Assembly (NCBI GenBank): GCA_038224325.1
Contig: JBBRFL010000016.1
Location: 3,076 to 67,075 of the forward strand
Reading direction: 5' to 3'
Origin: Thermoanaerobaculia bacterium
GTDB taxonomy: Bacteria; Acidobacteriota; Thermoanaerobaculia; UBA5066; Gp7-AA6
Length of the DNA: 64,000 nucleotides
Positions 13,554 through 64,000 of this stretch are shown here, in pieces (the first letter of the stretch is position 1; every line of letters starts with the position of its first letter). The notes below the pieces were generated by a model. It made no database searches. It saw only the letters and a program-made list of their open reading frames with translations, and was not told the DNA's origin. The translations under genes and the position numbers were made by a program.

Positions 13554-13575
13554 GGTGCGCCGCCGCACGGTTGGC

Positions 13576-13648: not shown

Positions 13649-13660
13649 GCTCCGGAGATT

Positions 13661-14829: not shown

Positions 14830-15497
14830 CGGCCGGGCGCCGGTTTCGCCGCGCCCGATTCCACCCCGAGGAGATCCAGCTTCAGGCTTCGGCCGGACCG
14901 GGCCTCCTTCAAGGCGATTTGTTGCGGCCACGTCTCGATCGCGCCCGAATACGACGCGGCCAGGTCGCCTCCGTTGGCGCGGATCCGGAGAGACCGGAGC
15001 CGCCGTGCCTTCACGTCGAGCACCGCCTCGACGGGATAGGGAGTCTCCCAGATCAGGAGGCATTCGCCCCCGTCGCACCCCCCTACGGCGCCGGGGGCTC
15101 CCGGCCAAACTGCCGCCAGTACGGAGCGCAGCGCGTCGGGGTCGACCACGAAGGCCCGCTGGTCCTGGCCCTTCACCCATCCCTCCGCGTAGTCCGCGAT
15201 GCGCGATCCGAAGGGCCCGGTGAGGGACGCGGAGAGGACGCGTTGCCCGTCGTAGCTGACCGCGAGGGTGCCGGAAACCGACGGCATGGCCCGCGAGCTC
15301 ATGTGGGCGTCGTAGAGCAGGCGCGAGGCGGGAAGGCGGGAGGCGCGTTCCTGCGCGGCGCCCCACGCGTCCAGCGCCTCTCGAACATCCTGCGGGCTCG
15401 CGGGCGGAAAGTAGCGAACGGCGCGAGGGCCTGCGCAGGAGGCGAGAATCAGGAGGAGCGGAAGGGCGGCGAGGGATCGGAGGAGACGGACGCTCAA
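14826..15497 (-). CDS. LolB-like outer-membrane lipoprotein, inferred from the lipobox and the conserved position upstream of ispE. TTG start.
   Basis: TTG-initiated (M)SVRLLRSLAALPLLLILASC with lipobox LASC. The TTG overlaps the upstream TPR gene's stop (TTGA). The lolB-ispE-prs synteny is known from E. coli. Confidence 0.4.
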   Translation of the reverse strand: MSVRLLRSLAALPLLLILASCAGPRAVRYFPPASPQDVREALDAWGAAQERASRLPASRLLYDAHMSSRAMPSVSGTLAVSYDGQRVLSASLTGPFGSRIADYAEGWVKGQDQRAFVVDPDALRSVLAAVWPGAPGAVGGCDGGECLLIWETPYPVEAVLDVKARRLRSLRIRANGGDLAASYSGAIETWPQQIALKEARSGRSLKLDLLGVESGAAKPAPGR

Positions 15498-35100: not shown

Positions 35101-36067
35101 TCGGAAGAACCGATCCCAGCTCCGGCAGCGCCACCCGATGCGCCGCGAAAAACGCGAGGGCGAGTAGCGCGTAACCCGCGAGCGCGAGAAGCCCGCGGTT
35201 GCCGTTTCCGTCCCGGCGGCGCAGCCGGTCCAGCGCGTACGGAAGAACGGCGACTCCGAGGGCCGGAATCCAGGCCATCGGCGAGGCCAGAACCCGCGCG
35301 TTTTCGCCGAGGGAGCAACTTGACGCCGCGAGGAGCCCGATCGCGAGCCCGGCCCCGCACTGCACCGGTCCGGCCCGCCCCGCCAGGAGCGCCAGGGCCA
35401 GGCCGATCAGGACGACCAGCGCCGCGATTCGCCAGCGCGGGTCGGTGCCGGGCGCGATGGAGGCTCGCCGGGCGGCGACGAGCGCGGATCCGCCGGGCAT
35501 GTTCAGCAACGTCGGCGCCTGCCCGGCGGCCACGGGCTCCCACGCGAGCGCCTCTCCGCGCAGGTCGAGCGCGCGGCCGAACCCGGGCGCCTCGACCGGC
35601 AACGATCGCGCGGCGCAGATCAGTCCGGCGAACGGCCCGGACCCGGTGACGCGCCAGTGCAGGAGCTCCATCCGCGTCGCCGACCAGCGCACGCTCAGGG
35701 TCCCGGAGGGGCGCACCTCCAGCACCTGCGCCGGAGCGTCGCCCCACCAGGCGTGCACCTCGCCGCCGCGGTCGGCGAGCGCGATCCACGTCCCGGGGCG
35801 GGAGTCCTTCATGGCTTCGCGGGCCGCTGTGAAGAGAGTTTGCCGGCGCACCGCGATCCCGCCGCCCTGCATGGAGCGCGCGACTTCCGGATCGGCCGCC
35901 AGCGCGGCCGCGCGCCGGGCGAGATCCGCCGACACGTCGGAGAGCGCGCGGGCCACGGCCTCGGGAGGACGCGCGCTCGCGGTCGCCCGGGGAAACGGGA
36001 TCCACCCGTCCAACCAGAGCAGGAGCGGCGCCGCGAGGAGAACCGCCCATACTGCCCGCCTTCGCAA
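32150..36067 (-). CDS. Very large multi-TM sensor histidine kinase (HAMP-PAS-HisKA-HATPase_c). No cognate response regulator lies in the window.
   Basis: C-terminus carries an H-box ([10 protein letters not shown]), G-boxes ([18 protein letters not shown]), and a HAMP-like then PAS-like region. About 900 aa of N-terminal polytopic sensor region. Start provisionally TTG at 36067, (M)[18 protein letters not shown]. The upstream 190 aa of the track ORF is R/G/P-rich junk. Confidence 0.72.
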
Positions 36068-36084
36068 GGTCGTCCGGGTCCTCT

Positions 36085-37755
<1,671 letters not shown>

Positions 37756-37807
37756 GAGCCGGGGATTATATCGGGCCGGTGCGAAGGGCTTCGGCCGGCG
37801 GCGGGCC

Positions 37808-39325
37808 TCAACGGAGCGGCCGAATCGCGCGCTCGACCGCCGCGCCGGCGAGGAACCCGCGAGCGCGCTCCAGGTCCGCGTGGAGCTCTCGATCGCGATC
37901 CCACGGCCGCACGACCCGACGGAAGTCGCGGCGCACGGCCTCGATCGCCGCCGACGACCGCAGGGGGCGGAGGAACTCCATGGCCTGGAACGCCGTGATC
38001 ATCTCGATCGCCAGCACCTGCTCGAGGTTCTGGACGATCGCGGTGAACTTCCGGGCCGCGATCGGCGACATCGAGACGTGGTCCTCCTTGGCCGCGGACG
38101 TTGGGATCGAGTCCACGGAAGAGGGATGGGACAGCACCTTGCACTCGGACACCAGCGAGGCCGCCGTGACCTGCGCCATCATCAGGCCCGAGTTCAACCC
38201 GCCCTCGGCGACGAGGAACGCCGGCAGGTCCGAGAGCGCGGGGTTCACGAGCTTCTCTATGCGGCGCTCGGAGATCGAGGCAAGGTCGGTGGCCGCGATG
38301 GCGGCGTAGTCGAGGACCAGTCCCACGGGCGCGCCGTGGAAGTTGCCGCCGGACACGATGTCGCCCCGCGCCGCAAAGACCAGCGGGTTGTCGGTCGCGC
38401 TGTTCATCTCGCGCTCGAGGACGACGCGGGCGTGATCGAAGGCGTCGCGCGCGGCGCCGTGGACCTGCGGCATGCACCGCAGGGAGTAGTTGTCCTGGAC
38501 GCGGCCGCAGCCCCGGTGCGACTCGCGGATCGCGCTTCCGCGGAGGAGCGAGCGCAGGTTGGCGGCGCTCGCAGCGGCCCCCGGGTGCGGGCGCGCGGCC
38601 ACGATGCGAGCGTCGAACGCGGCGTCGGAGCCGCGGGACGCGTCGAGGGAGGCGGCGCCCGCGAGGTCGGCGATCCGGCACAGCGCGAGCGCGCGCTCGA
38701 GAGCGAGCCCTCCGACGGCGACCGACATCTGCACGCCGTTGATGAGCGCCAGTCCCTCCTTGGCCGCGAGGGTGACGGGCGGGATCCGCGCCCTCCGCAG
38801 CGCGGCGCGGGCCGGCTGCAGGCGGTGACGCGAGCGCACGGTGCCTTCGCCGATGAGCGCCAGCGCCAGGTGCGCGAGCGGGGCGAGATCGCCCGACGCT
38901 CCGACGGAGCCCTGCGCTGGGACGATCGGCAGGACGTCGGCCGCCAGCATCCGCAAGAGGGTTTCGACGGTCGAGACGCGAATCCCCGAGTTTCCTCGGG
39001 CAAGGGCATTCGCCCGCAGCGCCATCATCGCCCGGACGATGCCGTCGGGGAGCGGATCTCCCACGCCCGCGGCGTGGCTGCGGATCAGGTTTCGCTGGAG
39101 CGCCTCGATCTGGTCGGCGGGGATCGGGACGTCCGCGAACTTTCCGAATCCCGTGGTCACGCCGTAGACCTTCTCCCCGCCGCAAATCGCGCGATCGACC
39201 ACGCGGCGGGAGGCCTGCATGGCCCGGCGGGCGCCCGGAGACAGAGCGAGGCGCACCGACCGGTCGGCCACCGCGCGCAGCTCCGCCAGAGTCAGGCCGC
39301 GGCCGTCGATACGCACGATCCGCAT
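37808..39325 (-). CDS. hutH: Histidine ammonia-lyase
   Basis: MIO-forming [14 protein letters not shown] motif. Confidence 0.93.
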
Positions 39326-47627: not shown

Positions 47628-49346
47628 GTGCAGGCTCCGGCGTTCCTCGGACCCCTCGCGCTGATTTTTCTCGCGGCCCTCGGCGCCGCCTACCTGCTGC
47701 ACCGGCTCCGCCAGCCTCCGCTCATCGGGTTTCTCGTCGCGGGAGCGCTCCTCGGTCCCTTCGGCCTCGGCCTCGTCAAGGACGTGCACGTCGTCGAGTC
47801 GCTCGCGGAGCTCGGTGTCGTGCTCCTGCTGTTCTCGGTGGGGCTCGAGCTCTCGCTCGGGAGCCTTCGCCGCCTCGGGAGGATAGTGTGGGTCGCCGGA
47901 CCCATCCAGGTGCTCGGCACGATCGCGCTCGTTTACGCCGTGGCCTCGGCGGGGGGCTATCCGGCGGCCCGGAGCCTCTTCTTCGGCTACCTCGTAGCGC
48001 TCTCGTCCACCGCGATCGTCCTGAAGCTTCTCCTCGATCGAAGGGAGCTGGACTCGCCGCACGGGCGATTCCTCGTCGGCATCCTGATCCTTCAGGACCT
48101 GGCGGTCGTCCCGATGCTGCTCTCCCTGGAGTTCCTGTCGGGCGCCCGGGGGGGAGGCATGCTCCCGCTGATCACCGCGCTCGGAAAGACGGCGCTGACG
48201 GCCGCCGCCCTCTTCGTGGCCGCCCGGGTCGTCGTCCCGCGATTCATCGGCGCGCTCGCGGGGACCCGGCAGAAGGAGATCTTCGTCGTCGCCATCCTGT
48301 TCCTCATCCTGGGCTCGGCGGTGGCGACCTCCTGGGCCGGTCTCTCGGCGGCCCTCGGCGCCTTCCTCGCGGGACTCGTCCTGTCGGATTCCGAGTACGG
48401 GCACCAGGCGCTCGCGGACATCGCGGGATTTCGCGATGCGTTCAACGCGCTCTTTTTCGTGTCGATCGGGATGCTCTTCGATCCGCGCGTCCTCGTGTCC
48501 CAGACCCTTCTCGTGGGAGTGCTCCTCGCGCTGATCCTCGTCTGGAAGACCGTCGCCGGAGGGGCGGCGGTCCTCGCCCTCGGGTACGGGACCCGCGTGG
48601 CTCTCGTCGTGGGCCTGTCGCTGGCCCAGATCGGCGAGTTCTCCTTCGTGGTGCTGCGCCAGGGCCTCGATCTTCGGCTCATCTCGCCGGGCCTGTACCA
48701 GACGTTTCTGGCCGCGGCCATCGTCACGATGATCGCGACGCCCTTCCTCTCCGAGGCGAGCCACGGGCTCGCGATGCGAATGGCGGCGAGAAGCCGGACC
48801 GCGCCCGGGCCCGACGCCGCGATGGCCGCCGAGAGGCACGTCGTCGTGATCGGGTTCGGCCACATGGGCGAGACGGTCGCCCGCCTCCTGGGCCGCGCGA
48901 AAGTCCCCTTCCGCGTCGTCGACCTCGACCCGGACCGCGTCAAGCGCGGAGCCAAACGCGGCATCCCGATCGAGTACGGCGATGCGACCAACGACTTCGT
49001 CCTGCGGCGTGCGGGCGTCGGAAGCGCCCTCGCCGCTCTGGTCGTGCTGTCGGATCCGCGCGGCACGCGGCAGGTCATCCGGCACTGCCGAAGACTCAAT
49101 CCGGGCATCTTCCTCCTCGCGCGCACGCGCTACCTGGCGGACATCCCCGGTCTCTCGGCGGCGGGAGCCGACGAGGTCGTCGCCGAGGAATTCGAAAGCT
49201 CTCTGGAGATCGCCGCCCGCGCGCTGCACCACCTCGGCTTGCCGATCCCCTGGGTGGAATCCGAGACCCAGGAGATCCGCCGCGCACGACAGGAGGGATT
49301 CCGGCGGTTCCGCGCTCCGGGCGGGGTCGACGGTCCGGTCGGCTAG
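47628..49346 (+). CDS. Monovalent cation:proton antiporter-2 (CPA2) family protein with C-terminal RCK/TrkA-N domain (KefB/KefC-like)
   Basis: Membrane domain of about 380 aa, then Rossmann VVVIGFGHMGETVARLL. GTG start (M)QAPAFLGPLALIFL. The upstream 400 aa of the track ORF is antisense-frame artefact. Confidence 0.8.
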   Translation: MQAPAFLGPLALIFLAALGAAYLLHRLRQPPLIGFLVAGALLGPFGLGLVKDVHVVESLAELGVVLLLFSVGLELSLGSLRRLGRIVWVAGPIQVLGTIALVYAVASAGGYPAARSLFFGYLVALSSTAIVLKLLLDRRELDSPHGRFLVGILILQDLAVVPMLLSLEFLSGARGGGMLPLITALGKTALTAAALFVAARVVVPRFIGALAGTRQKEIFVVAILFLILGSAVATSWAGLSAALGAFLAGLVLSDSEYGHQALADIAGFRDAFNALFFVSIGMLFDPRVLVSQTLLVGVLLALILVWKTVAGGAAVLALGYGTRVALVVGLSLAQIGEFSFVVLRQGLDLRLISPGLYQTFLAAAIVTMIATPFLSEASHGLAMRMAARSRTAPGPDAAMAAERHVVVIGFGHMGETVARLLGRAKVPFRVVDLDPDRVKRGAKRGIPIEYGDATNDFVLRRAGVGSALAALVVLSDPRGTRQVIRHCRRLNPGIFLLARTRYLADIPGLSAAGADEVVAEEFESSLEIAARALHHLGLPIPWVESETQEIRRARQEGFRRFRAPGGVDGPVG

Positions 49347-50689
49347 GCGCCGCGGGGCTGCGCGAAGGCGGCGGCGAGGCTCTCCCCCGCCATCCGCGCG
49401 GTGCGCCGGATGTCGGCGTCGGTGTGCGCGGTCGACAGGAACCAGGCCTCGAACTGCCCCGGGGGGAGGAAGACGCCGCGCTCGCGCATGGCGTGGAAGA
49501 AGAGGGCGTAGCGCCCGACGTCGGATCGCTTCGCCGCCGCGAAGTCCGGCACGGGCCCGGCAGTGAAGAAGAGCGTCAGGAGCGACCCGAGCCGCGCCAG
49601 GTGCAGCCGGTCGGCGAGCCCCCGCTCCCGCATCTGCTCGCGCAGCAGCTCCTCGAGCCGGCTCCCCTTCGCCTCCAGGTCCGCGTAGGGCGGCCTCCGG
49701 GAGATCTCCTGGAGCATCGCGATGCCGACGCTCATCGCGAGCGGGTTCCCGGAGAGGGTTCCCGCCTGGTACACGGGACCCTCGGGAGCCATGCGCTCCA
49801 TCAGCTCGCGGCCGCCTCCGTAGGCGCCGACGGGCAGGCCGCCTCCCAGGATCTTTCCGAGCGTCGTCAGGTCGGGATCGACCCCGAAGAGTCCCTGTGC
49901 GCCGCCGGCGGCGACCCGGAATCCGGAGATGACCTCGTCGAAGATCAGGAGGGCTCCGTGCCGGCGCGTGAGCTCGCGCGCGGCCCGCAGGTAGCCGTCC
50001 CTCGGAATCGAGAGGCCCATGTTGGCCGCGACCGGCTCGAGGATGACGGCGGCGATCTCGCCCGGGAAGCGGGCGAAGGCGGCCTCGATGGCCTCTGGGT
50101 CGTTGTACGGCACGACCGTGGTCAGGGCGGCCACCTCGTCCGGCACCCCGGGGCTCCCCGCGATCCCGAGGGTGGCGAATCCCGATCCCGCGGCCGCGAG
50201 GAAGGAGTCCGCGTGGCCGTGGTATCCGCCCTCGGCCTTCACGATCCGATTGCGCCCCGTGGCGGCGCGCGCCAGCCGGATCGCGCTCATCGTCGCCTCC
50301 GTGCCGGAGCTGACGAAGCGGACCATCTCGATCGACGGGATCATCCGGGTGACGCGCTCGGCCAGCCGCACCTCGAGCTCCGTCGGCGCGCCGAAGGAGG
50401 TGCCGCGCCGCGCCGCCCGGCTCAGGGCGCGCTGCGCGAACGACGGAAGATGCCCGAAGAGATGGGGACCGTACGACATCACGTAGTCGAGGTAGGAGCG
50501 GCCGTCGGCGTCCCGGATGCGCGCGCCCCGGCCCGACGCCGCGAAGAATGGCTCGCCTCCGACCGAGGTGAACGAACGGACGGGCGAGCTCACCCCGCCC
50601 GGCATCAGCTGCCGGGCGCGCCGGAAGAGGCGGGACGAGTTGCGGTTGTCGGGCTTGCGCCGCCCGGGCGGCCCGGTCCGCTTCGTCAT
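49343..50689 (-). CDS. hemL: Glutamate-1-semialdehyde 2,1-aminomutase
   Basis: MPGGVSSPVRSF and PLP-lysine region FDEVISGFRV; full-length. Confidence 0.92.
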   Translation of the reverse strand: MTKRTGPPGRRKPDNRNSSRLFRRARQLMPGGVSSPVRSFTSVGGEPFFAASGRGARIRDADGRSYLDYVMSYGPHLFGHLPSFAQRALSRAARRGTSFGAPTELEVRLAERVTRMIPSIEMVRFVSSGTEATMSAIRLARAATGRNRIVKAEGGYHGHADSFLAAAGSGFATLGIAGSPGVPDEVAALTTVVPYNDPEAIEAAFARFPGEIAAVILEPVAANMGLSIPRDGYLRAARELTRRHGALLIFDEVISGFRVAAGGAQGLFGVDPDLTTLGKILGGGLPVGAYGGGRELMERMAPEGPVYQAGTLSGNPLAMSVGIAMLQEISRRPPYADLEAKGSRLEELLREQMRERGLADRLHLARLGSLLTLFFTAGPVPDFAAAKRSDVGRYALFFHAMRERGVFLPPGQFEAWFLSTAHTDADIRRTARMAGESLAAAFAQPRGA

Positions 50690-50702
50690 GCGCGGGGGCC
50701 GG

Positions 50703-51695
50703 TCACCGGGTCTCGAACCCGTCCCGAAGCCAGCCCGCCGCGTCCCGCGCGTGATACGTCAGCACGAAGTCGGCCCCGGCGCGGACGATCCCGGTCAGGA
50801 TCTCGAGGACGATCCTCTTCTCGTCGATCCAGCCGCGCTCCGCCGCCGCCTTGACCATCGCGTACTCGCCGGAGACGTTGTACGCGGCGATCGGTGCGTC
50901 GAATCGCCGCCGGGCCTCGCGGATCACGTCGAGGTAGGCGAGCGCGGGCTTCACCATCACGGCGTCGGCTCCCTCCTCGAGATCGAGAGCGATCTCTCGC
51001 ATCGCCTCGCGGCGGTTGGCCGGGTCCATCTGGTAGCCGCGCCGGTCGCCGGAGTGGGGCGCGGAGTCCGCGGCCTCACGGAAGGGACCGTAGAACGCGG
51101 AGGCGGACTTGGCGGAATACGCGAGGATGGCGACCCGGGACTGATCCGCCGCGTCGAGGCCGGCCCGGATGGCGCCCACCCGACCGTCCATCATGTCCGA
51201 GGGGGCGACGACGTCGGCGCCGGCGCGCGCGTGGGACAGCGCAACCCTGGCTAAAAGCGGGAGCGTCGCGTCGTTGTCCACCTCGCCGTCGCGGAGGACA
51301 CCGCAGTGCCCGTGCGAGGTGTACTCGTCCAGGCAGACGTCCGTGATCACCAGCAGGTCGGGCGACGCCTCCTTGATCCGACGGACGCTCTCCTGCACCG
51401 CCGCGGCGTCGTCCCAGCTCTCGCTTCCCGTCTCGTCCTTGCGCTCGGGCAGGCCGAAGAGGAGGACAGCCGGAACGCCGAGGCCGCGCAGCTCCTGCGC
51501 CGAGGCGACCGCTTCGTCCGGCGAGAGGCGCTCCACACCGGGAAGGGACGCGATGGGCTCGCGCAGGCCGCGGCCGCGGCGAACGAACAGGGGCGCCACC
51601 AGCTGCTCCGGCGACACGCGGACCTCGCGGACGAGCGCGCGCGACGCGGGGCTTCGCCGCAGCCGGCGCAGTCGGGTCTCCGGATAGCGGGTCAT
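50703..51695 (-). CDS. hemB: Porphobilinogen synthase (ALA dehydratase)
   Basis: RLRRLRRS, SDMMDGRVGAIR and SAKSASAFYGPFREAADSAP motifs. Start trimmed to MTRYPETRLRRLRR. Confidence 0.92.
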   Translation of the reverse strand: MTRYPETRLRRLRRSPASRALVREVRVSPEQLVAPLFVRRGRGLREPIASLPGVERLSPDEAVASAQELRGLGVPAVLLFGLPERKDETGSESWDDAAAVQESVRRIKEASPDLLVITDVCLDEYTSHGHCGVLRDGEVDNDATLPLLARVALSHARAGADVVAPSDMMDGRVGAIRAGLDAADQSRVAILAYSAKSASAFYGPFREAADSAPHSGDRRGYQMDPANRREAMREIALDLEEGADAVMVKPALAYLDVIREARRRFDAPIAAYNVSGEYAMVKAAAERGWIDEKRIVLEILTGIVRAGADFVLTYHARDAAGWLRDGFETR

Positions 51696-51708
51696 GAGTG
51701 CCCGCAGA

Positions 51709-52455
51709 CTATTGCCCGACGCCCTCGCCCGCAAGCTCTTCGAGCAGGCGAGCGGCGGCGTCGAACCGGGGCTCCTCCGCGACTGCGATGCGCGCGACTC
51801 CGTGCGACTCCAGGTAGCGGCGCGTGTAGCGACCCAGCACGACGGCGGGCGTCTCCTTGAGCCGCTCCGCCGCAGCCACGGGAAGCCCGCGGAAGAGCCA
51901 CGTCGCGGCGGAGGGAGACGTCACGCAGAACGCCATGAAGGGCCGCTGCAAGATCTGACGGCCGAGCTCCTCGTCGGCCGGAACCGGAACCTTTCGGTAC
52001 ACGGCGACCTTGCTCACGGCGGCCCCGCGCCGCGTCAGCGCCGCGGCGAGCTCTGGCGTCGCGTCTTCCGCGCAGGGATAGAGGACGTGAAACCTCTCGA
52101 GCGCCGCGGGAAGGTGGTCGAGAACGGATTCGCCCGAGCCCTTGGCGACGACGTCCGGCGGCAGGCCGAGCCGTCGCAGGGAGCTCTCCGTGGCGCCGCC
52201 CACGGCGACAACGCGCCCGCCGGATGCGGCCGCCCGCAGCAGCGGCGCCAGGCGGTCATCGGACAGGACTCGCTCGACCGTGACCTGGCTCGTGAAGAGA
52301 GTCAGGTCGGCGTGGCGCTCGAAGGCGGACGGCGGCACTTCCAGCGGTTCGATCGAGTGGCTCACGCGCTCGACGATCTCCAGGTTCGATTCCGCGGGGA
52401 GGCGCGCGAAGGGGTTCGCTCCGGAGCGGACGACCAGCACGCGCGGCCCGCTCAT
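51709..52455 (-). CDS. hemD: Uroporphyrinogen-III synthase
   Basis: Position between hemC and hemB. VLVVRSGANPF...LTLFTSQVTVERVL pattern. ATGA overlap with hemC. Confidence 0.72.
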   Translation of the reverse strand: MSGPRVLVVRSGANPFARLPAESNLEIVERVSHSIEPLEVPPSAFERHADLTLFTSQVTVERVLSDDRLAPLLRAAASGGRVVAVGGATESSLRRLGLPPDVVAKGSGESVLDHLPAALERFHVLYPCAEDATPELAAALTRRGAAVSKVAVYRKVPVPADEELGRQILQRPFMAFCVTSPSAATWLFRGLPVAAAERLKETPAVVLGRYTRRYLESHGVARIAVAEEPRFDAAARLLEELAGEGVGQ

Positions 52456-53357
52456 CGGGAGGCCCGCGCGATCCACTCCGCGGCCCCCCGCGCGAGCAGG
52501 CGCTCGGCGAGCTCTCTCCCGACGGCCTCGGCCGCTTCGGCCCGCCCCTCCGCCTCGTCCCGGATCACTCGGGAGCCATCCTCGGCGAAAACCGCGCCCT
52601 CCATCCGGAGATTCCCCTCCCGGACGCGGGCCCGGGCGGCGACGGGCCCCCGGCATCCCGCCTCGAGCCGGGCGAGGAACGCGCGCTCCGCGAGAACTTC
52701 CCGATGCGAGGCCGGGTGATCCATCTCCCGGAGCGCCCCCCGAGTCTGCGAATCCGCCTCCCGCGCGACGATCGCGAGCGCTCCCTGCCCGACCGCCGGA
52801 AGCATCACCGAGGCGTCGAAGATTTCCGCGATCTCGCCCAGCCGGTTGAGGCGCGAGAGGCCTGCCCGGGCGAGCACGATCGCGTCCCAGCGTCCCTCCC
52901 GCAACCGGCGGATCCGGGTGTCCACGTTTCCTCGGGCCTCTTCGACGACGAGGTCCGGCCGCGCGGCGAGGACCTGGGCGCGCCGGCGCGGACTGGATGT
53001 TCCCACTCGCGCCCCCGGAGCGAGCTCTCCCAGGGTCCGGCCCTCCCGGGAGACGAGAACGTCGCTCGGATCCTCGCGCTCGGGGACCGCGGTGAGGACG
53101 AGCCCGGCCGGGATCGCCGACGGCACGTCCTTGAGGCTGTGGACCGCCAGGTCGATCCGGGAGTCGAGCAAGGCTTCGTCCAGCTCCCGCGTGAAGTCTC
53201 CCTTCCAGGAGATCGGCTTTCCGGACCCGGAGAGGCGATCCCCCGTCGTCCTCACCGTCACGAGCTCGACCTCGTTGGGGCCGGCGAGCGCGCTCCGGAC
53301 AATCTCCGCCTGCGCCATCGAGAGCGCGCTGCCGCGCGCGCCCAGACGGAGCCTCAT
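52452..53357 (-). CDS. hemC: Hydroxymethylbilane synthase (porphobilinogen deaminase)
   Basis: RLRLGARGSALSMAQAEIV and GNVDTRIRRL motifs, plus the cofactor-binding Cys (LEAGCRGPVAA). Confidence 0.9.
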   Translation of the reverse strand: MRLRLGARGSALSMAQAEIVRSALAGPNEVELVTVRTTGDRLSGSGKPISWKGDFTRELDEALLDSRIDLAVHSLKDVPSAIPAGLVLTAVPEREDPSDVLVSREGRTLGELAPGARVGTSSPRRRAQVLAARPDLVVEEARGNVDTRIRRLREGRWDAIVLARAGLSRLNRLGEIAEIFDASVMLPAVGQGALAIVAREADSQTRGALREMDHPASHREVLAERAFLARLEAGCRGPVAARARVREGNLRMEGAVFAEDGSRVIRDEAEGRAEAAEAVGRELAERLLARGAAEWIARASR

Positions 53358-54613
53358 CGGTCCAGGTCGAAGAGGTGGCGGATCGCCTCGACGCGGTCGA
53401 GCTTTCGGGAGGCGTCGGTCTCCGACTTCAGCCGCCGCAACGGCTCGTGAAGGAGCTTGGACGCGATCGCGTCGGCGAAGGCGCGGAAGCGCTCGCGGTC
53501 TTCGCCGGGGAGGCGGGAGAGCTCCGCGTCGCGGAGGGACGCCAGGCGCGCCTGGAGATCCGTGAGCGTCGGGACGACGGCGAGATTTCCGAACCAGCCG
53601 AGGAAACGGCCCAGCTCCTCCTCGAGGATCGCCTCCGCCCGCGGGACCTCGCGGCCGCGCCGCCGCCGGTTCTCCTCCGCCGCGCCCTCCAGCTCCTCGA
53701 GACCGTACGAGTAGACGTTGTAGATCTCCGCGACCGCCGGGTCGATGTCCCGTGGCACGGCCAGGTCCAGGAAGAACATCGGCTTGCCGCGCCGCCGCCG
53801 CATCGCTTCCTCGACGTGCTCGCGCCGCACGATGGACCCGGGGCTCGCCGTCGCGCCGACCACGACATCCGCCTCGGGCAGCAACTCGGAGAGGCCCTCC
53901 CACGCGACGCAGCGGCCTCCGACCCGGCGAGCCAGCTCCTCCGCCCGCCCGGGAGTGCGGTTGGCGATGCGGATGTCGCGCACGCCGGCCTCCACCGCCT
54001 GCTGCGCGAAAAGAGTGCCGGTCTCCCCCGCTCCGATCACCAGCACCGTCTGGTCCGCCATGTCGCCGAAGATCTTCGTGGCCAGACCGAAGCCGATCGA
54101 CGCGACCGAGAGCGGGTGTCGGGAGATTTCGGTCTCCGTCCGCACGCGCTTTCCCGCGGCGACCGCGTTCTCGAAGAGGCGATGGAGCACCGCGCGCGAG
54201 AATCCGGTCTCCCGGGCCAGTCGGAGCGCGGTGCGCACCTGGCCGAGCACCTCGCTCTCCCCGAGCGCCATCGAGTCGAGACCCGCCGCGACCCGGAAGA
54301 GATGGCGGACCGCCTCCGCACCCTCGCTGTAGAAGCTCGACCGCGCCGCCTCCCCGACGTCGACCCCGCGCCACTCCGCGATCAAGCGGGTCAGCTCGCG
54401 GTCGGTCCCGTCGCCCTCCGCGATCCCGTAGATCTCGCTGCGGTGGCAGGTCGCGACGATCACGCCCTCGCTCATCAGGCCGCGCCCGCGGATCCGCTCG
54501 AGCGCCTCCCGTACCTCCTCGCCCGTCCAGGCGATGCGCTCGCGCACCGACGCCGCGCCCGACCGGAAGTTCCAGCCGAGCACGAGGAGGCGGCCTTCGC
54601 TCGCCCCGCTCAT
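53354..54613 (-). CDS. hemA: Glutamyl-tRNA reductase
   Basis: VIVATCHRSEIY and NAD-binding VLVIGAGETG motifs. ATGA overlaps on both sides. Confidence 0.9.
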   Translation of the reverse strand: MSGASEGRLLVLGWNFRSGAASVRERIAWTGEEVREALERIRGRGLMSEGVIVATCHRSEIYGIAEGDGTDRELTRLIAEWRGVDVGEAARSSFYSEGAEAVRHLFRVAAGLDSMALGESEVLGQVRTALRLARETGFSRAVLHRLFENAVAAGKRVRTETEISRHPLSVASIGFGLATKIFGDMADQTVLVIGAGETGTLFAQQAVEAGVRDIRIANRTPGRAEELARRVGGRCVAWEGLSELLPEADVVVGATASPGSIVRREHVEEAMRRRRGKPMFFLDLAVPRDIDPAVAEIYNVYSYGLEELEGAAEENRRRRGREVPRAEAILEEELGRFLGWFGNLAVVPTLTDLQARLASLRDAELSRLPGEDRERFRAFADAIASKLLHEPLRRLKSETDASRKLDRVEAIRHLFDLDR

Positions 54614-55419
54614 CGGAAGCTGTGCACGCGGGTGAAGTAGAGGTTCACGACTGTGTACGAGAAGATCACGACACCGAATCCGAAGATCGACAGGACGGCG
54701 ACGCGGGGGCCCTCCCAGCCGCGGCGGTCCATCCACAGCAGGAATCCGTACACCGCCAGGGTCAGGGCCGCCCACTCGACCTTCGGGTCCGCGAGCGTGC
54801 TCCAGACCCGTTCCGCCCAGACGACGCCCAGCACGAGCGACAGGGTGAGGACGGCCAGGCCGACCGAGACGCTCGTGCGGTTCATCCGTCCGATGACCTC
54901 CAGCGCGGGCAGGCGGGAGAACAGCAGCCCGGTTCGCCGTCGGCGGATCTGGCGATTCTGAACCAGGTACAAGACCGAGAGCACGAAGGAGAACGTGAAC
55001 GCCGCGTAGGCGAGGATCGCCAGTGTGACGTGCAGGGCGAACACGGAGCCATAAGTGCCCGGCGACGTCCCCGACGCGGCGTCGGGGAGCAGCAGCCCGG
55101 CCGCGGTCGCGAGGACCACCATCGGAATGAGGAACGCTCCCATCGAGCGCTCCCGGTGGCGGACGAGCAGAACGAGGTACGCGATTCCCAGCATCCATCC
55201 GAAGAGCGACACCGATCCGCCGAGTGTCCGATACGGGACCGAGCCGAGCTCGCGCGCGCGGCGCATGAGATCGCCGAAATGGAGCGCGAGGCCGGCCGCG
55301 ATCCATACAGGCGTCAGGCGCGGCCAGGACGCGCGAGGAGCCATCAGCGTTGCGATGGCAAATCCTTCCGCGCCGAGGTAGCACAGCAGCGCGAGCCCTC
55401 CGAGGACGTGTGGAACCAT
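54610..55419 (-). CDS. CcsA/ResC-like cytochrome c assembly family membrane protein (HemX-like) heading the hemA operon
   Basis: Polytopic, 269 aa, with a W-rich region (VVWAERVWSTLADPKVEWAALTLAVYGFLLWMD). Sits immediately upstream of hemA with an ATGA overlap, analogous to B. subtilis hemX. Confidence 0.65.
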   Translation of the reverse strand: MVPHVLGGLALLCYLGAEGFAIATLMAPRASWPRLTPVWIAAGLALHFGDLMRRARELGSVPYRTLGGSVSLFGWMLGIAYLVLLVRHRERSMGAFLIPMVVLATAAGLLLPDAASGTSPGTYGSVFALHVTLAILAYAAFTFSFVLSVLYLVQNRQIRRRRTGLLFSRLPALEVIGRMNRTSVSVGLAVLTLSLVLGVVWAERVWSTLADPKVEWAALTLAVYGFLLWMDRRGWEGPRVAVLSIFGFGVVIFSYTVVNLYFTRVHSFR

Positions 55420-55467
55420 GGGCGCGCGGATTTTATCAGCCAGGAGAGGCCGTAATACGATAGCCCG
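55420..55467. promoter_or_regulatory. 48-bp divergent control region between the two heme operons (ccsA-like-hemACDBL on one side and acnA-hemENHY on the other)
   Basis: GGCGCGCGGATTTTATCAGCCAGGAGAGGCCGTAATACGATAGCCCG. Locally AT-rich elements (GATTTTATCAG, GTAATACGATAG) lie between start codons on opposite strands. Confidence 0.3.
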
Positions 55468-58295
<2,828 letters not shown>

Positions 58296-58299
<4 letters not shown>

Positions 58300-59372
58300 C
58301 GGACCCCGGTTCCCCCTCGGCGGACCGTCTCCTCTCGGCTTGCGGCGCGCGCCCGGTCGACCGGCCTCCCGTTTGGATGATGCGGCAGGCGGGACGCTAC
58401 CTGCCGGAGTATCGGGAGGTCCGCCAGCGCGTCTCCTTCCTCGAGCTTTGCCGATCGGTTGAGCTCGCGACGGAGGTCTCGCTGCAGCCCTTCCGCCGAT
58501 TCGCGCCGGACGCCGTGATCTTCTTTTCCGACATCCTCGTTCCGGCCGCCGCCATGGGAGCGCGCGTCGAGTTCGGCGACGGAGGCCCCGAGCTTCCCGA
58601 GCCGGTCCGCGACGCCTCGGGAGTCGAGCGCCTCCACCGGTTCGACCCCGCGGCCGAGATCGGATTCACGGGCGAAATCCTCCGGGCGCTGCGCCGGGAG
58701 GTTGGTGACCGGGCCGCGGTGCTGGGCTTCTGCGGCGCGCCCTGGACGCTCGCCTCCTACCTGGTAGAGGGCGGCGGGTCCAAGAGCTTCGCGCGCATCA
58801 AGGAAATGATGGGGCGCGATCGCGCCTGCCTCCGCGGGCTTCTCGATCTCCTGGCGGACGTAGCCGCCGACGTGCTCTCTTTCCAGATCGCCTCCGGCGC
58901 GCAGGCGGTGCAGCTTTTCGACACCTGGGCCGGCGAGCTGACCGAGGAGGACTACCGCGAATGGGCGCTGCCGGCCCTCGCTCGCGCGATCGCGGGCATC
59001 CGCCGCGCGGAGGCTCCCGTTCTCCTCTACGTCAACGGCTGCGGGCACCTCCTCGAAGCGATGGCCGAATCGGGCGCGGACGTCCTCTCGATCGACTGGC
59101 GCACGAGCCTGCGGGAAGCGCGGCGGCGGCTGCCGGGAAAACCCCTCCAGGGGAACCTCGATCCGGGGCTGCTGCTCGGAACCCCCGAGGAGGTCGCGCG
59201 CCGGACCCGGGCCGCCGTCGCGCAGACCCGGGGACAGGCGCATGTCGTCAACCTCGGGCACGGGATCCTTCCCGGTTCCCGGCTGGAGTGCGTCGAGGCG
59301 CTCTTTTCCGCCGCGCGCGAGCCCCTCGCGGCGCCGCCGGTGGCGGCGCCCGCCACGAGCGCGGCCCGATGA
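58296..59372 (+). CDS. hemE: Uroporphyrinogen decarboxylase
   Basis: [21 protein letters not shown] overlap with the acnA stop. Confidence 0.92.
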
Positions 59373-60751
59373 ATCCCGGCGAGGTTCCCCTCGAGCTCTT
59401 GCGGCGCTACAACGTTCCGGGGCCGCGCTACACCTCGTATCCGACCGCGCCCATGTGGAAGGACGACTTCGCGGCGGCGGACTACGGCCGCGCGCTGGAG
59501 GAGTCGGGCTCCGCGGCGTCTCCCGCGCCGCTCTCGCTCTACGTGCACCTGCCCTTCTGCGAAAGGCTCTGCTACTTCTGCGGCTGCACGGTGGTGATCA
59601 CCGGGACCCGCCACGCGCCGGAGTCGGACTACCTCGATGTTCTCGAGCGCGAGATCGACTGGGTCGCCGAGCGCGCCGGGGCGGCCCGCACGGCCGTCCA
59701 GCTCCACTGGGGCGGCGGCACGCCGACCTATTTTCCGCCGCCCCTGCTCGAGCGGCTCGGGCGACGCATCTTCGACCGCTTCGCGTTCGCGGCCGACGCC
59801 GAAATCGGCGTCGAGGTGGATCCCCGGGTCACCACCTCGGAGCACCTCGAGACCCTCGCGAGGCTGGGCTTCAACCGCCTCAGCATGGGCGTGCAGGATT
59901 TCGACCCGCGGGTCCAGGCGGCGATCAACCGCATCCAGCCCTACGAGCAGACCCGCGGGCTGGTCGAGTCGGCTCGCGGCCTGGGATTCACCAGCCTGAA
60001 CATCGACCTGATCTACGGTCTGCCCCACCAGACGCCGGAGAGCTTCTCCGCGACCATCGACCGCGTGCTCGAGATCGCCCCCGACCGCCTCGCGGTTTAT
60101 TCCTACGCCAACGTGCCCTGGATGAAGAAGCACCAGAGCGTGCTCGTCCCGGACCTGCCCGCCGAGCAGACGAAGTTCGAGATCTTCCGCCGCGCGCTGT
60201 CGCGGTTCACCGCCGCGGGATTCGAATACATCGGGATGGACCACTTCGCCCGGCCGGACGACGAGCTGGCCCGCGCCCGGCGCGATCGCACGCTTCACCG
60301 CAACTTCCAGGGATACACGACGAAGGCCGGGACCGACCTCATCGGCTTCGGGATGAGCGCCATCGGCTCGATCGGCGCTCACTACGTGCAGAACCGGCGC
60401 GAGCTGCCGGCGTACCGGGAGGCCGTCGCGGACGGCGGAGCGGCGACGTTCCGCGGCTTGCGACTCTCCGGCGACGATCTGCTGCGCCGCACCATCATCG
60501 GAAATCTGCTCTGTCACGGCATCGTCGTCAAGGCCGAGATCGAGGAGCGGTTCGCCCTCGATTTCGACGCCCACTTCGCGGACGCCCTCGATAAGCTCCG
60601 GTCTTGCGCCGCGGACGGGCTGGTCGAGCTCACGCCGGGTGAAATCCGCGCCACCGGGTTAGGGCGGATCTTCCTCCGCAACCTCGCGATGCCGTTCGAC
60701 GCCTACCTCGACGCGGGACGCGAGCAACCCGTCTTCTCGCGGACCCTGTAG
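59369..60751 (+). CDS. hemN: Oxygen-independent coproporphyrinogen III oxidase (radical SAM)
   Basis: CERLCYFCGC radical-SAM cluster motif in a HemN-length protein of 460 aa. ATGA overlap with the hemE stop. Confidence 0.88.
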   Translation: MNPGEVPLELLRRYNVPGPRYTSYPTAPMWKDDFAAADYGRALEESGSAASPAPLSLYVHLPFCERLCYFCGCTVVITGTRHAPESDYLDVLEREIDWVAERAGAARTAVQLHWGGGTPTYFPPPLLERLGRRIFDRFAFAADAEIGVEVDPRVTTSEHLETLARLGFNRLSMGVQDFDPRVQAAINRIQPYEQTRGLVESARGLGFTSLNIDLIYGLPHQTPESFSATIDRVLEIAPDRLAVYSYANVPWMKKHQSVLVPDLPAEQTKFEIFRRALSRFTAAGFEYIGMDHFARPDDELARARRDRTLHRNFQGYTTKAGTDLIGFGMSAIGSIGAHYVQNRRELPAYREAVADGGAATFRGLRLSGDDLLRRTIIGNLLCHGIVVKAEIEERFALDFDAHFADALDKLRSCAADGLVELTPGEIRATGLGRIFLRNLAMPFDAYLDAGREQPVFSRTL

Positions 60752-60753
60752 CG

Positions 60754-61773
60754 ATGCCCCGGCCAGGCGCCCGTCCGATGATGCCCGCCGGGCCCGCTCG
60801 CGCCATCCTCTTTCTCCAGCTCGGCGGGCCCGAGACCCTCGACGACGTTCCGGGGTTCCTGTATCGGCTCTTCTCGGATCCCGACGTCATTCGCGTGCGG
60901 CCCGCGCTTCTCCGGAAGGCCATCGCCGCCGCGATCGCGCTGGGCCGTCAGAAGGCTTCGCGCGCGCTCTACGCGTCGATCGGCGGCGGCTCGCCCATCC
61001 GCCGCCTGACCGACCAGCAGGCCGCGGGAACGGAGCGACTCCTCCGCGAGGAGGGGCGGGACGTCGCCGTCCGAACCGCGATGACCTGCTCGCCTCCGTT
61101 CGTCGAGAGCGTGGTCGAGGAGCTCGCGGAGGCAGGAGTGCGGCGCTTCCTGGCCTTCCCGCTCTACCCGCAGTACTCCACGACCACCACCCGGGGAGCC
61201 CTGCAGCGCAGCCGAGACGCGGTGCGCCGCTACGCTCCCGGCGCCACGCTCGCGGAGATCGGCTCCTGGCCGACGCACCCGCTGTTCGTCCAGGCGCACG
61301 CGGAGTCGATCGTCGAGGAGCTCGCCCGCTTTCCGGATCCGCGGGCGGAGTCCACCCACCTGCTGTTCTCGGCGCATTCGATTCCGAAGAAGCTCGTCAC
61401 GCGGCACGGGGACCCGTACCCCGTGGAAGTCGAGGCGAGCATCCGCGCGATCCGCGAGCGGCTCGCGTGGCGCGGACCCTCGACGCTCGCCTACCAGTCC
61501 AAGCTCGGCCCAGTCGAATGGCTGGGCCCGCCGACCCTTCAGGTCATCCGCGAGCTCGGACGGAGCGGCCAGGCGCAGGTCCTCGTCGTCCCCATCGCCT
61601 TCGTGACCGACCACGTCGAGACGCTCCAGGAGATCGATCAGCTCTTCGCCGACGCGGCGCGAGCGGCGGGGATCGCGCACTTCCGCCGGACGCCCGGGCT
61701 GAACGACCGCCCGACGTTCCTCCGGGCGCTCGCGGACCTCGCGCGCTCGGCCGAGCCGTTCTGGAGCGAGTGA
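60754..61773 (+). CDS. hemH: Ferrochelatase
   Basis: ILFLQLGGPETLDDVPGFLYRLFSDPDVI plus a C-terminal metal-binding His/Glu region (FSAHSIP, VTDHVETL). Confidence 0.9.
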   Translation: MPRPGARPMMPAGPARAILFLQLGGPETLDDVPGFLYRLFSDPDVIRVRPALLRKAIAAAIALGRQKASRALYASIGGGSPIRRLTDQQAAGTERLLREEGRDVAVRTAMTCSPPFVESVVEELAEAGVRRFLAFPLYPQYSTTTTRGALQRSRDAVRRYAPGATLAEIGSWPTHPLFVQAHAESIVEELARFPDPRAESTHLLFSAHSIPKKLVTRHGDPYPVEVEASIRAIRERLAWRGPSTLAYQSKLGPVEWLGPPTLQVIRELGRSGQAQVLVVPIAFVTDHVETLQEIDQLFADAARAAGIAHFRRTPGLNDRPTFLRALADLARSAEPFWSE

Positions 61774-63104
61774 GCGGACGGACCATCGTCGTCGGCGGCG
61801 GCCTCTCGGGCCTGGCCGCGGCGTACGCGCTCTCTCGCCGCGGAGAGGAGTTCGTGCTCCTCGAGTCGTCGGATCGGCCGGGCGGTGTGGTGCGGAGCCA
61901 ACGGGATCGCGGCTTCCTCCTGGAGCTAGGCCCCAACACGGTCCGGCCGACCGCGCCGCTGTGGGGACTCATCGAGGAGCTCGGGCTCGCGGGCGAGGCT
62001 CTTCGAACGGACCCGAAGAGCCCCCGGTACGTCGACTTCGACGGAGAGCTGCACGAGGTGCCGATGTCGCTCGGGGGCTTCGCCGCGACCCGCCTCCTCT
62101 CGCCCGGGGGGAAGCTTCGCCTCCTCGCCGAGCCGTTCGTCCGCCGCGGAACGGATCCGGACGAGAGCGTCCGCGACTTCGTCACCCGAAGGCTGGGAGC
62201 GCAGGTTGCCGACCGGCTCGTCGAACCGTTCGTCGCGGGAATCTTCGCGGGCGACTGGTCGCGGCTCTCGGCCGCGGCCGCCTTCCCCGCTCTGCTCCGC
62301 TCCGAGCGGGAGCACGGGAGCCTCCTCGCCGGTGCGATCGCCGGGCGCCCTGCGCGTCGCCGCGCCCGCGAGACGGCGCCGGCGCGCGGCCTCCTCTCGT
62401 TCCGAGACGGCCTGGAGACGCTGCCCCGCGTTCTCGCGCGGCGCCTCGGCTCCTCGATGCGCGCGGGAGTCGGCGCGATGTCCCTCGCTCCACGAGCCGG
62501 AGGATGGTCCGTCGCGGCCGGGGCCGAGGAGCTGCGGGCGGAACGCGTCGTGCTGGCGGCTCCGGCTCATGTCGCCTCTATGCTCATTTCCCCCTTCGCG
62601 CCGGATGCGGGGCGCGCGCTGCGGGAGATTCCCCATCCTCCCCTGGCGGTCGTCCACCTGTCGTGGCCGGAGGCCTCGATGCGAGGGCCTCGGCGGGGCT
62701 TCGGACACCTCGTGGCCCCGGGGGGATCGCGCCGGATCCTCGGGGCCGTGTGGAGCTCGAGCCTCTTCCCGGGCCGCGCCCCGGAGGGCCGGTCCCTCCT
62801 GACCGTCTTTCTCGGCGGGACCCGCGACCCCTCGGCGCCCTCGCTGTCGGATGCCGCGCTCATCGACGCCGCGGCGCGCGACCTCGAGTCGGAGGGACTC
62901 GTGCGGGGCGCTCCGGATCCAGTTCGCGTCACCCGATGGGAGCACGCGATCCCGCAGTACGACCGGGGCCACGCCGGCCGAATGGAGGTCCTGGCCGAGA
63001 CCGAGAGGCGGATGCCGGGCCTGCTCTTCGCGGGCAACTATCGGGACGGAGTCTCGGTTGCCGACGTCATCCGCTCCGGGCTCGCGGCGGGCGCCGGCCC
63101 CTGA
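61770..63104 (+). CDS. hemY: Protoporphyrinogen oxidase (HemY-type, FAD-dependent)
   Basis: GTG start overlapping the hemH stop (GTGA). Rossmann VVGGGLSGLAAAYAL...LLESSDRPGG. Confidence 0.8.
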   Translation: MSGRTIVVGGGLSGLAAAYALSRRGEEFVLLESSDRPGGVVRSQRDRGFLLELGPNTVRPTAPLWGLIEELGLAGEALRTDPKSPRYVDFDGELHEVPMSLGGFAATRLLSPGGKLRLLAEPFVRRGTDPDESVRDFVTRRLGAQVADRLVEPFVAGIFAGDWSRLSAAAAFPALLRSEREHGSLLAGAIAGRPARRRARETAPARGLLSFRDGLETLPRVLARRLGSSMRAGVGAMSLAPRAGGWSVAAGAEELRAERVVLAAPAHVASMLISPFAPDAGRALREIPHPPLAVVHLSWPEASMRGPRRGFGHLVAPGGSRRILGAVWSSSLFPGRAPEGRSLLTVFLGGTRDPSAPSLSDAALIDAAARDLESEGLVRGAPDPVRVTRWEHAIPQYDRGHAGRMEVLAETERRMPGLLFAGNYRDGVSVADVIRSGLAAGAGP

Positions 63105-63632
63105 TCACGGATGCTCGTGGTCGGAATCGCCGTCCGACTTCAAAGCCTTCTGCTCCTCCGCGGTCAGCCGCGGCAGCTGCCGCACGACCGACACGATCTT
63201 CCAGATCTCCTCGTCCTTGTGGGTCGGCCCGAAGGCCGGCATCCCGGACATCCGAATTCCGTTCTGGATGATCCAGAAGAGCTCCCCGTCCGTTCGCTGC
63301 TGGATGCGGGCGAGTGTCAGGTCGGGAGCCGGGGGGTTCAGCCCCTCGCCCGCCTCCGACGCATCGACGCCCGGAGCGCCGTGGCAGAAGACGCACATCT
63401 CCTTGTAGTGGGCCATCCCCCCGCGCGCCGCGTCCGGGTTGCCCGAGAACGGATTGGCCGCCTTCGGGGCCCGGCGTGCGACCGATCGATCCAGGGCCAT
63501 TCCCGCGAGGCGCTTCTCCAGAGTGCTCGGAGGGACGTTGGCCGACGTGTTGAACGACCCCGTCGCGACGACCGCAGCGGCAGCCAGCCCGAGGAGCAGG
63601 AATCCGGTGATCAATCCCGTCAGAAACTTCAT
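63105..63632 (-). CDS. Membrane-anchored monoheme c-type cytochrome (class I)
   Basis: N-terminal hydrophobic anchor, heme-binding CVFCHG and distal Met region (SGMPAFG). Convergent with and adjacent to the hemY stop. Confidence 0.7.
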   Translation of the reverse strand: MKFLTGLITGFLLLGLAAAAVVATGSFNTSANVPPSTLEKRLAGMALDRSVARRAPKAANPFSGNPDAARGGMAHYKEMCVFCHGAPGVDASEAGEGLNPPAPDLTLARIQQRTDGELFWIIQNGIRMSGMPAFGPTHKDEEIWKIVSVVRQLPRLTAEEQKALKSDGDSDHEHP

Positions 63633-63671
63633 GAGAACCTCCTCGCCATCTTCCGGCGAATGCTAGTCATT

Positions 63672-64000
63672 TCACAGGAGCGGCGCCAGCCGGGCAGCGA
63701 GGGAGTCCCCGAAACGGTGGAGGGCGCCGCGCCGGTTCCAGGACCGCCGCTCGATCTCGACCGAGGCCGCCAGGTCCTCGAGGTATTGAGCCTCCATCCG
63801 CGCGGCGGTCTCGACGTCCGCGATCACGAAGTTGCACTCGGCGTTGAGCTCGAAGGACCGGAAGTCGAGGTTGCTCGATCCCACCAGCGATAGGAGCCCG
63901 TCGGCCACCATCGTCTTGGCGTGGAGGATCGCGGGCTGGTACTCGAAGATGCGCACGCCCCGGGAGAGAAGCCCCGAATAGAAACCGTGGCTGGCGTGCC
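63672..64000 (-). CDS. cls: Cardiolipin synthase / phospholipase D family protein, C-terminal part only (5' end beyond window)
   Basis: HKD motif HAKTMVADG....GSSNLD. The frame stays open to the window edge (RIFEYQP... continues upstream). Confidence 0.75.
   Translation of the reverse strand, partial: HASHGFYSGLLSRGVRIFEYQPAILHAKTMVADGLLSLVGSSNLDFRSFELNAECNFVIADVETAARMEAQYLEDLAASVEIERRSWNRRGALHRFGDSLAARLAPLL

Follow-up and report, generated by a model that had tools for sequence, protein, structure and literature searches.

A compact heme supercluster with an embedded aconitase gene in a Thermoanaerobaculia bacterium: a likely case of operon accretion by spacer loss

Why does the gene for a tricarboxylic acid (TCA) cycle enzyme lie in the middle of a complete set of heme biosynthesis genes? 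The question is raised by a 64,000-nt stretch of DNA (hereafter the window; about 70% G+C) from a Thermoanaerobaculia bacterium, in which the aconitase gene acnA is enclosed by two divergent heme operons and overlaps hemE. The first-pass annotation of this DNA had suggested that the link reflects iron or redox co-regulation of aconitase with heme synthesis. This suggestion found no support: no operator was recognised in the spacer between the operons and no iron-responsive element (IRE) in the region around them, the unrelated flanking genes are equally syntenic, and in basal relatives acnA is separate from the hem operons. We consider it likely that the locus is a compact heme supercluster in which a housekeeping aconitase gene became fused to hemE late, by loss of a spacer, with co-expression as a consequence and no dedicated iron or redox device.

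Layout of the supercluster and its junctions

The supercluster of about 14 kb (49343-63104), described earlier as two divergent operons with aconitase embedded, was confirmed by NCBIfam and Pfam identities. Gene starts were picked from the lists of open reading frames (ORFs) and from the point where the family profile alignment begins. Identities were assigned with the curated cutoffs of both databases, except that HemD and the HemX-like protein fail the NCBIfam equivalog cutoffs. The genes are as follows (window coordinates):

49343-50689, minus strand: hemL, glutamate-1-semialdehyde 2,1-aminomutase (TIGR00713, 556 bits)
50703-51695, minus strand: hemB, porphobilinogen synthase (NF006762, 486.5 bits; profile alignment begins at residue 4)
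51709-52455, minus strand: hemD, uroporphyrinogen-III synthase (PF02602 HEM4, 118.9 bits)
52452-53357, minus strand: hemC, hydroxymethylbilane synthase (TIGR00212, 316 bits)
53354-54613, minus strand: hemA (gtrR), glutamyl-tRNA reductase (TIGR01035, 362.7 bits against a cutoff of 209.55)
54610-55419, minus strand: hemX-like gene heading the minus-strand operon, CcsA-family polytopic membrane protein of 269 residues (PF01578, 105.7 bits)
55468-58299, plus strand: acnA, heading the plus-strand operon, aconitate hydratase A of the IRP1 family, 943 residues, GTG start (NF006757 and NF009520, 1342 bits)
58296-59372, plus strand: hemE, uroporphyrinogen decarboxylase (TIGR01464, 374.8 bits)
59369-60751, plus strand: hemN, oxygen-independent coproporphyrinogen III oxidase, CgdH (TIGR00538, 552 bits against a cutoff of 325)
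60754-61773, plus strand: hemH, ferrochelatase of the protoporphyrin type, as judged from sequence affinity (TIGR00109, 275 bits)
61770-63104, plus strand: hemY, protoporphyrinogen oxidase, GTG start (TIGR00562, 300 bits)

HemD passes the Pfam HEM4 cutoff only, the NCBIfam equivalog models matching it weakly and below cutoff. The start of hemH is ambiguous: it may be 60754 or the ATG at 60778, which was the choice of the gene caller on identical Logan contigs and leaves a 26-nt gap to hemN.

ATGA overlaps join hemX to hemA, hemA to hemC and hemC to hemD, as well as acnA to hemE and hemE to hemN. The earlier description of the whole minus-strand operon as strung together in this way holds for the first three junctions and fails at hemD-hemB and hemB-hemL, where the gaps are 13 nt. 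On the plus strand, the junction sequences bear out the order given before (ATGA, ATGA, a 2-nt gap between hemN and hemH, and GTGA between hemH and hemY), so that acnA and hemENHY follow one another on the same strand with spacings of -4, -4, +2 and -4 nt. The placement of acnA as the first gene of this operon, coupled to hemE, also stood: the two genes overlap by 4 nt, with neither a promoter-like box nor a terminator-like site in excess of chance nearby. Between 48800 and 64000, five terminator-like sites were found against 4.3 expected, i.e., at chance level, none of them at a junction, and a sigma-70 consensus scan of the same 15 kb returned zero sites. We infer from this sequence arrangement that acnA and hemENHY are co-transcribed. 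Aconitase and the late heme enzymes are then likely to be co-expressed in this subclade, which is plausibly tolerated or even of slight use, given that aconitase and these enzymes alike serve respiration and consume iron.

Both ends of the supercluster are devoid of intergenic DNA and so leave no room for terminators: the hemL stop overlaps that of the convergent kef gene (CTAG, 49343-49346), while the hemY TGA abuts the stop of a convergent cytochrome c gene (63102-63107). The latter gene (63105-63632, minus strand) encodes a membrane-anchored c-type cytochrome of 175 residues with a CVFCH motif (PF13442) and is followed by a cardiolipin synthase gene; this pair adjoins hemY in about 12 related loci.

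History of the acnA-hemE junction

The junction differs among relatives. The 4-nt ATGA overlap of acnA and hemE is found in the window and in 14 related loci, spacers of 17-240 nt separate the two genes in nine loci, and a 2.4-kb insert lies between them in two others (L005 and L104), which L102 resembles and L095 may resemble. The L005 insert is a gene for a 790-residue Ser/Thr kinase-TPR protein (12907-15279) located on the opposite (minus) strand, making co-transcription of acnA with hemE impossible in that genome. Since the Staphylococcus aureus kinase Stk1 phosphorylates the glutamyl-tRNA reductase GtrR (PMC10991733), the presence of a kinase gene inside a heme cluster may not be accidental. 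In a neighbour-joining tree of HemE, rooted with an outgroup and carrying no support values, the loci with a gap are basal and those with the overlap form one nested group, with one exception.

In the spacer-bearing loci, hemE has promoter-like boxes of its own, either the extended -10 element TGCTATACT or TTGGACA-N17-TATTGT, with the start codon 6-7 nt further on. These boxes are missing in the window, and the extended -10 box TGnTAnnnT is absent from the last 400 nt of acnA in all 12 overlap loci checked (12/12). Here hemENHY thus appears to lack a separate promoter of the type seen in relatives; if there is any, it would be of another type. Such a promoter, unrecognised inside acnA and driving hemENHY without co-transcription, would reduce the 4-nt overlap to a product of genome streamlining. 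The window is indeed extremely compact, with convergent genes sharing or abutting stop codons at both ends of the cluster, and promoters of this clade are -10-dominated and easily missed. The absence of both kinds of box argues against this alternative, as does the overlap itself, which leaves no room for separate ribosome loading unless there is an upstream signal, and we regard compaction without co-transcription as unlikely.

The other side of acnA has also changed. A yceI gene often stands between hemX and acnA in spacer-bearing lineages; in L005 it occupies 9228-9830 (minus strand) and encodes a YceI-like periplasmic protein. L091 and L111 have a similar gap of about 1 kb between hemX and acnA, and yceI is missing from the subclade of the window. 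The basal group (L005, 9930-9998; L090, L091, L106 and L111) carries a canonical TTGAC(C/G)-N17/18-TAGACT promoter in front of acnA. A short upstream ORF of 6-24 codons begins 10-11 nt after this promoter in all five loci; its peptide is not conserved, while its stop codon overlaps the acnA start (ATGA, GTGA or TGATG) in every case. This looks like delivery of ribosomes to acnA by a leaderless upstream ORF, with termination and reinitiation.

Taken together with the apparent lack of acnA near hemE beyond this clade, these observations can be arranged into a sequence of events. In the clade ancestor, acnA would have come to be transcribed independently, with one hem operon on either side. Within the subclade of the window, the acnA-hemE spacer would then have been lost along with hemE's own promoter, which would have turned acnA and hemENHY into one translationally coupled operon. 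A gap as the ancestral state and the overlap as the derived one is the most parsimonious reading of the sequences.

AcnA relatives were searched in GTDB contigs with one genome per species, and they place the window in the class Thermoanaerobaculia of the Acidobacteriota. Six species genomes (L001-L005 and L043; Thermoanaerobaculia/Acidobacteriota) share all 11 genes with order and orientation unchanged; their AcnA proteins are 72-79% identical. The remaining 74 loci, which come from other Acidobacteriota, from Verrucomicrobiota and from further groups and encode AcnA of no more than 70% identity, lack hem genes near acnA. A metagenome scan with HemE gave 31 contigs at 71% identity or above. 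About 25 of them reach far enough upstream and, apart from a few ambiguous cases, have acnA ahead of hemE in the same orientation; no acnA was found within the 1.2-2.3 kb upstream of hemE in L095 and L108. Recurrence in six species-level genomes and in many metagenome contigs implies that the layout is neither a chance nor an assembly feature. More than 120 HemE clusters at 74% identity or above are present in the protein database and several of their sources name Thermoanaerobaculia, which indicates a common uncultured environmental lineage. Close HemE homologues are also encoded on several contigs of 1.3-4.3 Mb (P0051, P0084, P0043 and P0054). Exact look-ups gave no match for the AcnA protein in the contig index and, for HemE, no more than two short Logan contigs, in which the genes are ordered as in the window.

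The flanking genes are as syntenic as the cluster itself: kef, coding for a Kef-type antiporter convergent with hemL, the cytochrome c gene and cls (cardiolipin synthase) after hemY, and purA further out. In the synteny check proposed earlier, the layout is kept in relatives, but unrelated flanks are kept just as well, which weakens a functional reading. The neighbourhood seems to have been inherited as a block, and conservation alone is no argument for function.

The 48-bp spacer and the question of a dedicated regulator

The two operons diverge from a region of exactly 48 bp (55420-55467), as noted before. Because a TAA lies in frame at 55453-55455, translation of acnA must begin at the GTG at 55468. 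Two elements were recognised in the spacer:

hexamer at 55430-55435 (plus-strand numbering), minus strand: extended -10-like box TGATAAAAT before hemX, 10 nt ahead of its ATG
55452-55464, plus strand: conserved 13-mer GTAATACGATAGC before acnA, the TACGAT hexamer of which ends 6 nt before the acnA GTG

They are the sole conserved elements in the spacers of short-spacer loci, and both are non-palindromic. The core AATACGAT is invariant in all 11 short-spacer relatives (11/11) and ends 3-4 nt ahead of the acnA start codon; the TACGAT hexamer, which is of the TAnnnT type, stands 6-7 nt upstream of that codon among these loci. On the opposite strand, a TGnTA(A/G/C)A(A/C)T box was found by eye 10-11 nt from the hemX ATG in six of seven loci. 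GTAATACGATAGC is unique in the window, its other matches being at the chance level of three mismatches, and in related loci it occurs upstream of acnA only. The distance between the two boxes varies among relatives from about 11 nt to over 60 nt.

We propose, from this comparative conservation and not from the sigma-70 consensus scan, that the spacer holds two back-to-back -10-type promoters. The distance from box to start codon predicts a leaderless acnA mRNA, and transcription would start so as to give leaderless mRNAs, or mRNAs with 3-4-nt leaders, in both directions. Such a design does not seem to be special to the heme locus. A -10-like hexamer, often TAGAAT, precedes the start codon by 6-12 nt with no Shine-Dalgarno sequence at eight of the 20 gene starts examined in the window, against a few percent expected by chance on a rough estimate. 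These eight starts, which include those of hutH, murJ, mutS, prs, uvrC and others, are located at 39325, 23428, 27813, 13126, 3429 and 55419 on the minus strand and at 6209 and 55468 on the plus strand. Other genes in the window (ssb, cytochrome c) carry clear GGAGG sites. With a fraction of eight in 20, the leaderless or short-leader design looks like the organism's norm, and mRNAs with no leader or a very short one would seem to be common in this Thermoanaerobaculia genome. Beside hutU and hutH (36085-39325), the window also encodes a sensor kinase of 1476 residues with HAMP, HisKA and HATPase domains (32150-36580, minus strand), the long N-terminal part of which has no Pfam match.

A spacer so small and common to both operons would be a convenient place for one iron-, peroxide- or heme-responsive factor to control aconitase and heme synthesis in both directions. 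GTAATACGATAGC, which overlaps the predicted start site, is conserved over more positions than a -10 hexamer would require, and there is a precedent in S. aureus, where one iron-sparing small RNA, IsrR, acts on aconitase as well as on genes of heme synthesis (PMC11317140, PMC12607789). The search of the spacer for operators was negative: none of the consensus strings for Fur, PerR, Irr, DtxR/IdeR, Zur, FNR, IscR, OxyR and RirA matched it better than shuffled sequence, the best matches having 6-11 mismatches and being reached by 38-100% of shuffles. The lack of palindromy in the conserved elements and their variable distance also speak against such a factor. No regulator gene was found in or beside the cluster, and no Fur-type regulator among the window genes that were labelled by Pfam or by eye. 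In basal relatives, acnA is split from both hem operons by the yceI and kinase genes and has a different promoter. We therefore judge adaptive co-regulation through the spacer improbable.

Control could also reside in aconitase itself. AcnA of the window is a full-length protein with both Pfam domains (PF00330 and PF00694), scores 1342 bits with the AcnA models and has the mammalian IRP1/cytosolic aconitase as its best relative of solved structure (969 bits). The three cysteine ligands of the [4Fe-4S] cluster are present in ITSCTNTS and GYGCTTC, and AcnA looks like an ordinary enzyme, predicted to be catalytically intact. In these features it agrees with the bifunctional aconitases of the AcnA/IRP1 family; it differs from them by some 65 inserted residues (about 407-470), among which Gly, Ser, Thr and Pro are abundant and which separate two aligned blocks in the comparison with IRP1 and the AcnA profile, and in that no RNA target was found with Rfam in 48800-64000. 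A comparable insert segment is visible in AcnA of L005. The similarity to AcnA of other Acidobacteriota (68-70%) looks vertical, so the protein is probably a housekeeping TCA enzyme. We rejected the idea of a specialised aconitase paralogue, since the AcnA proteins next in similarity (68-70%) are encoded by ordinary genes of Acidobacteriota and Verrucomicrobiota that lack hem genes in their neighbourhood.

Apo-aconitases of Mycobacterium tuberculosis, S. aureus and Escherichia coli bind mRNAs including their own (PMC7527780, PMC11317140, PMC4150767). Together with the IsrR precedent, this makes a regulatory tie conceivable. AcnA devoid of its cluster might bind its own polycistronic mRNA, or that of the hemX operon, and tune late heme synthesis to iron, in parallel with IRP1 and ALAS2; co-transcription would place hemENHY on the RNA of acnA, and the protein is of the IRP1 family with intact cluster ligands. 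This homology is shared by all AcnA proteins and is therefore non-specific evidence. Neither IRE_I nor IRE_II nor any other Rfam cis-element or structure was detected in 48800-64000 at E<=5, and the permissive E-value returned two chance-level matches, an L20 leader and a snoRNA. Since the acnA-hemE link is not kept in basal relatives either, we hold a moonlighting role of AcnA to be very unlikely. Equally unlikely in our opinion is the stronger form of the idea, in which AcnA of this subclade would act as an iron or oxidative-stress sensor, bind a leaderless acnA-hemENHY mRNA once devoid of its cluster and set the output of iron-consuming late heme synthesis, a bacterial counterpart to the control of erythroid heme synthesis by IRP1 that operon fusion would have hard-wired. 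On the whole, dedicated iron or redox regulation of the cluster is unsupported.

Several points weigh against late fusion of a housekeeping aconitase gene as the explanation. The HemE tree has no support values, and the locus L094 with a 17-nt gap sits inside the overlap group. Co-transcription is read from sequence, and a non-consensus internal promoter inside acnA is possible. The housekeeping role of AcnA is deduced from similarity, and the genome may have a second aconitase elsewhere. acnA is found between the hem operons throughout the clade, so there may be weak selection for linkage. Finally, GTAATACGATAGC shows a stricter conservation than a plain -10 box requires and could also be an operator.

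Heme pathway, HemX-like protein and known clusters

The earlier statement that every step from glutamyl-tRNA to protoheme is encoded holds on the NCBIfam and Pfam assignments and on the affinities of HemY and HemH. The C5 entry enzymes GtrR (HemA) and GsaM (HemL) are present, both above cutoffs, and so are the core enzymes PbgS, HmbS, UroS and UroD, UroS by its Pfam cutoff only. HemN is a true CgdH: it scores 552 bits with TIGR00538 against 132 bits with the HemW model TIGR00539 and has the CxxxCxxCxC motif (CERLCYFCGC). Among proteins of solved structure, HemY is closer to PgoX of Myxococcus xanthus (2IVD, 244 bits) than to the Bacillus subtilis enzyme (3I6D, 186 bits), and HemH scores 232 bits with human FECH against about 113 bits with coproporphyrin ferrochelatases (CpfC). 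Judged from these affinities, HemY and HemH would be of the protoporphyrin(ogen) type, and the cluster is predicted to encode the full nine-step C5 protoporphyrin-dependent route: GtrR, GsaM, PbgS, HmbS, UroS, UroD, HemN/CgdH, HemY/PgoX and HemH/PpfC.

A coproporphyrin-dependent pathway was rejected on the affinities of HemN, HemY and HemH. No ChdC/HemQ-like gene was found among the window ORFs examined, some of which were labelled by Pfam and others by eye. The point is of interest, since HemQ is on record from Acidobacteria and the phylum has been discussed both as an early branch in heme pathway evolution and as transitional between the coproporphyrin and protoporphyrin routes (PMC5095920).

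The CcsA-like protein encoded beside hemA, which had been said to recall HemX, does fit the HemX family by its PF01578 domain and gtrR adjacency. Its identity as a System II cytochrome c synthase (CcsA/CcsB) was tried and failed: it scores 113 bits with the CcsB model TIGR03144, below the cutoff of 187.6, and the gene has no ResB-like neighbour. Kyte-Doolittle hydropathy reveals six strong segments and two weaker ones judged by eye. Residues around 198-216, the counterpart of the Trp-rich heme-handling WWD motif of CcsA, read WAERVWSTLADPKVEW. Compared with the CcsA consensus, this segment appears degenerate, with most tryptophans missing, which would fit a non-synthase, regulatory role. The hemX-like gene is kept beside hemA in every related locus that extends that far.

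Genes for HemX homologues accompany gtrR across phyla and in each of the three heme pathways; eight transmembrane segments, with four conserved residues in them, have been described for HemX (PMC5801465). The mechanism by which HemX lowers GtrR levels is still unknown (PMC10991733). The protein described here resembles HemX of S. aureus and B. subtilis in its PF01578 domain, a length of about 270 residues and a gene beside gtrR, and perhaps also in having roughly eight hydrophobic segments; it differs in that this gene lies upstream and not downstream of hemA. By analogy with Bacillus and Staphylococcus, the HemX-type protein probably restrains GtrR levels.

Literature searches returned nothing specific on an acnA-hemE genomic fusion, on an aconitase-heme operon link or on the heme biology of Thermoanaerobaculia. 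The closest parallels agree with the locus in part. As in the hemAXCDBL and hemEHY operons of B. subtilis, the early genes include a HemX-type gene beside hemA, and hemE, hemH and hemY are in a second operon (PMC10991733, PMC5801465). Unlike in B. subtilis, hemX precedes hemA, the operons are arranged head to head, aconitase heads the late operon, and that operon includes a true hemN. HemY and HemH, of the coproporphyrin type in B. subtilis, are here of the predicted protoporphyrin type, and no PerR-like operator was found in the 48-bp spacer.

Operons of heme genes are classical, and a complete cluster has a precedent too. The hemACDBLENYH cluster of Leptospira interrogans (PMC2266917) likewise contains the whole pathway with non-hem genes embedded and one part transcribed oppositely. 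However, the genes embedded there are a two-component regulator pair with a heme-related phenotype, while here a central-metabolism enzyme is encoded. The two clusters also differ in gene order and in the divergent two-operon layout, and the one described here has a HemX-like gene. An unrelated metagenome contig of 52% G+C (L114, 2038-10832) carries hemE-hemN-hemH-hemY-hemC-hemD-hemL-hemB on one strand, indicating that large heme super-operons arose independently elsewhere. What is new in the present locus is the head-to-head architecture, the fusion of aconitase to hemE and the predicted pair of leaderless promoters.

None of these points overturns current understanding. The locus provides a clean example of a full, predicted protoporphyrin-dependent pathway in Acidobacteria and places a HemX homologue upstream of gtrR. 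It also supplies sequence-level evidence for common -10-only promoters with leaderless or short-leader transcripts, and this bears on how genes are called and start sites annotated in the metagenome-assembled genomes of this lineage. The overall pattern points to operon accretion by spacer loss and not to a purpose-built iron/redox module. If acnA and hemENHY are co-transcribed, a TCA-cycle Fe-S enzyme would be tied stoichiometrically to the terminal heme enzymes in abundant uncultured soil Acidobacteriota, and the subclade would offer a natural test case for operon growth by spacer loss and its regulatory consequences.

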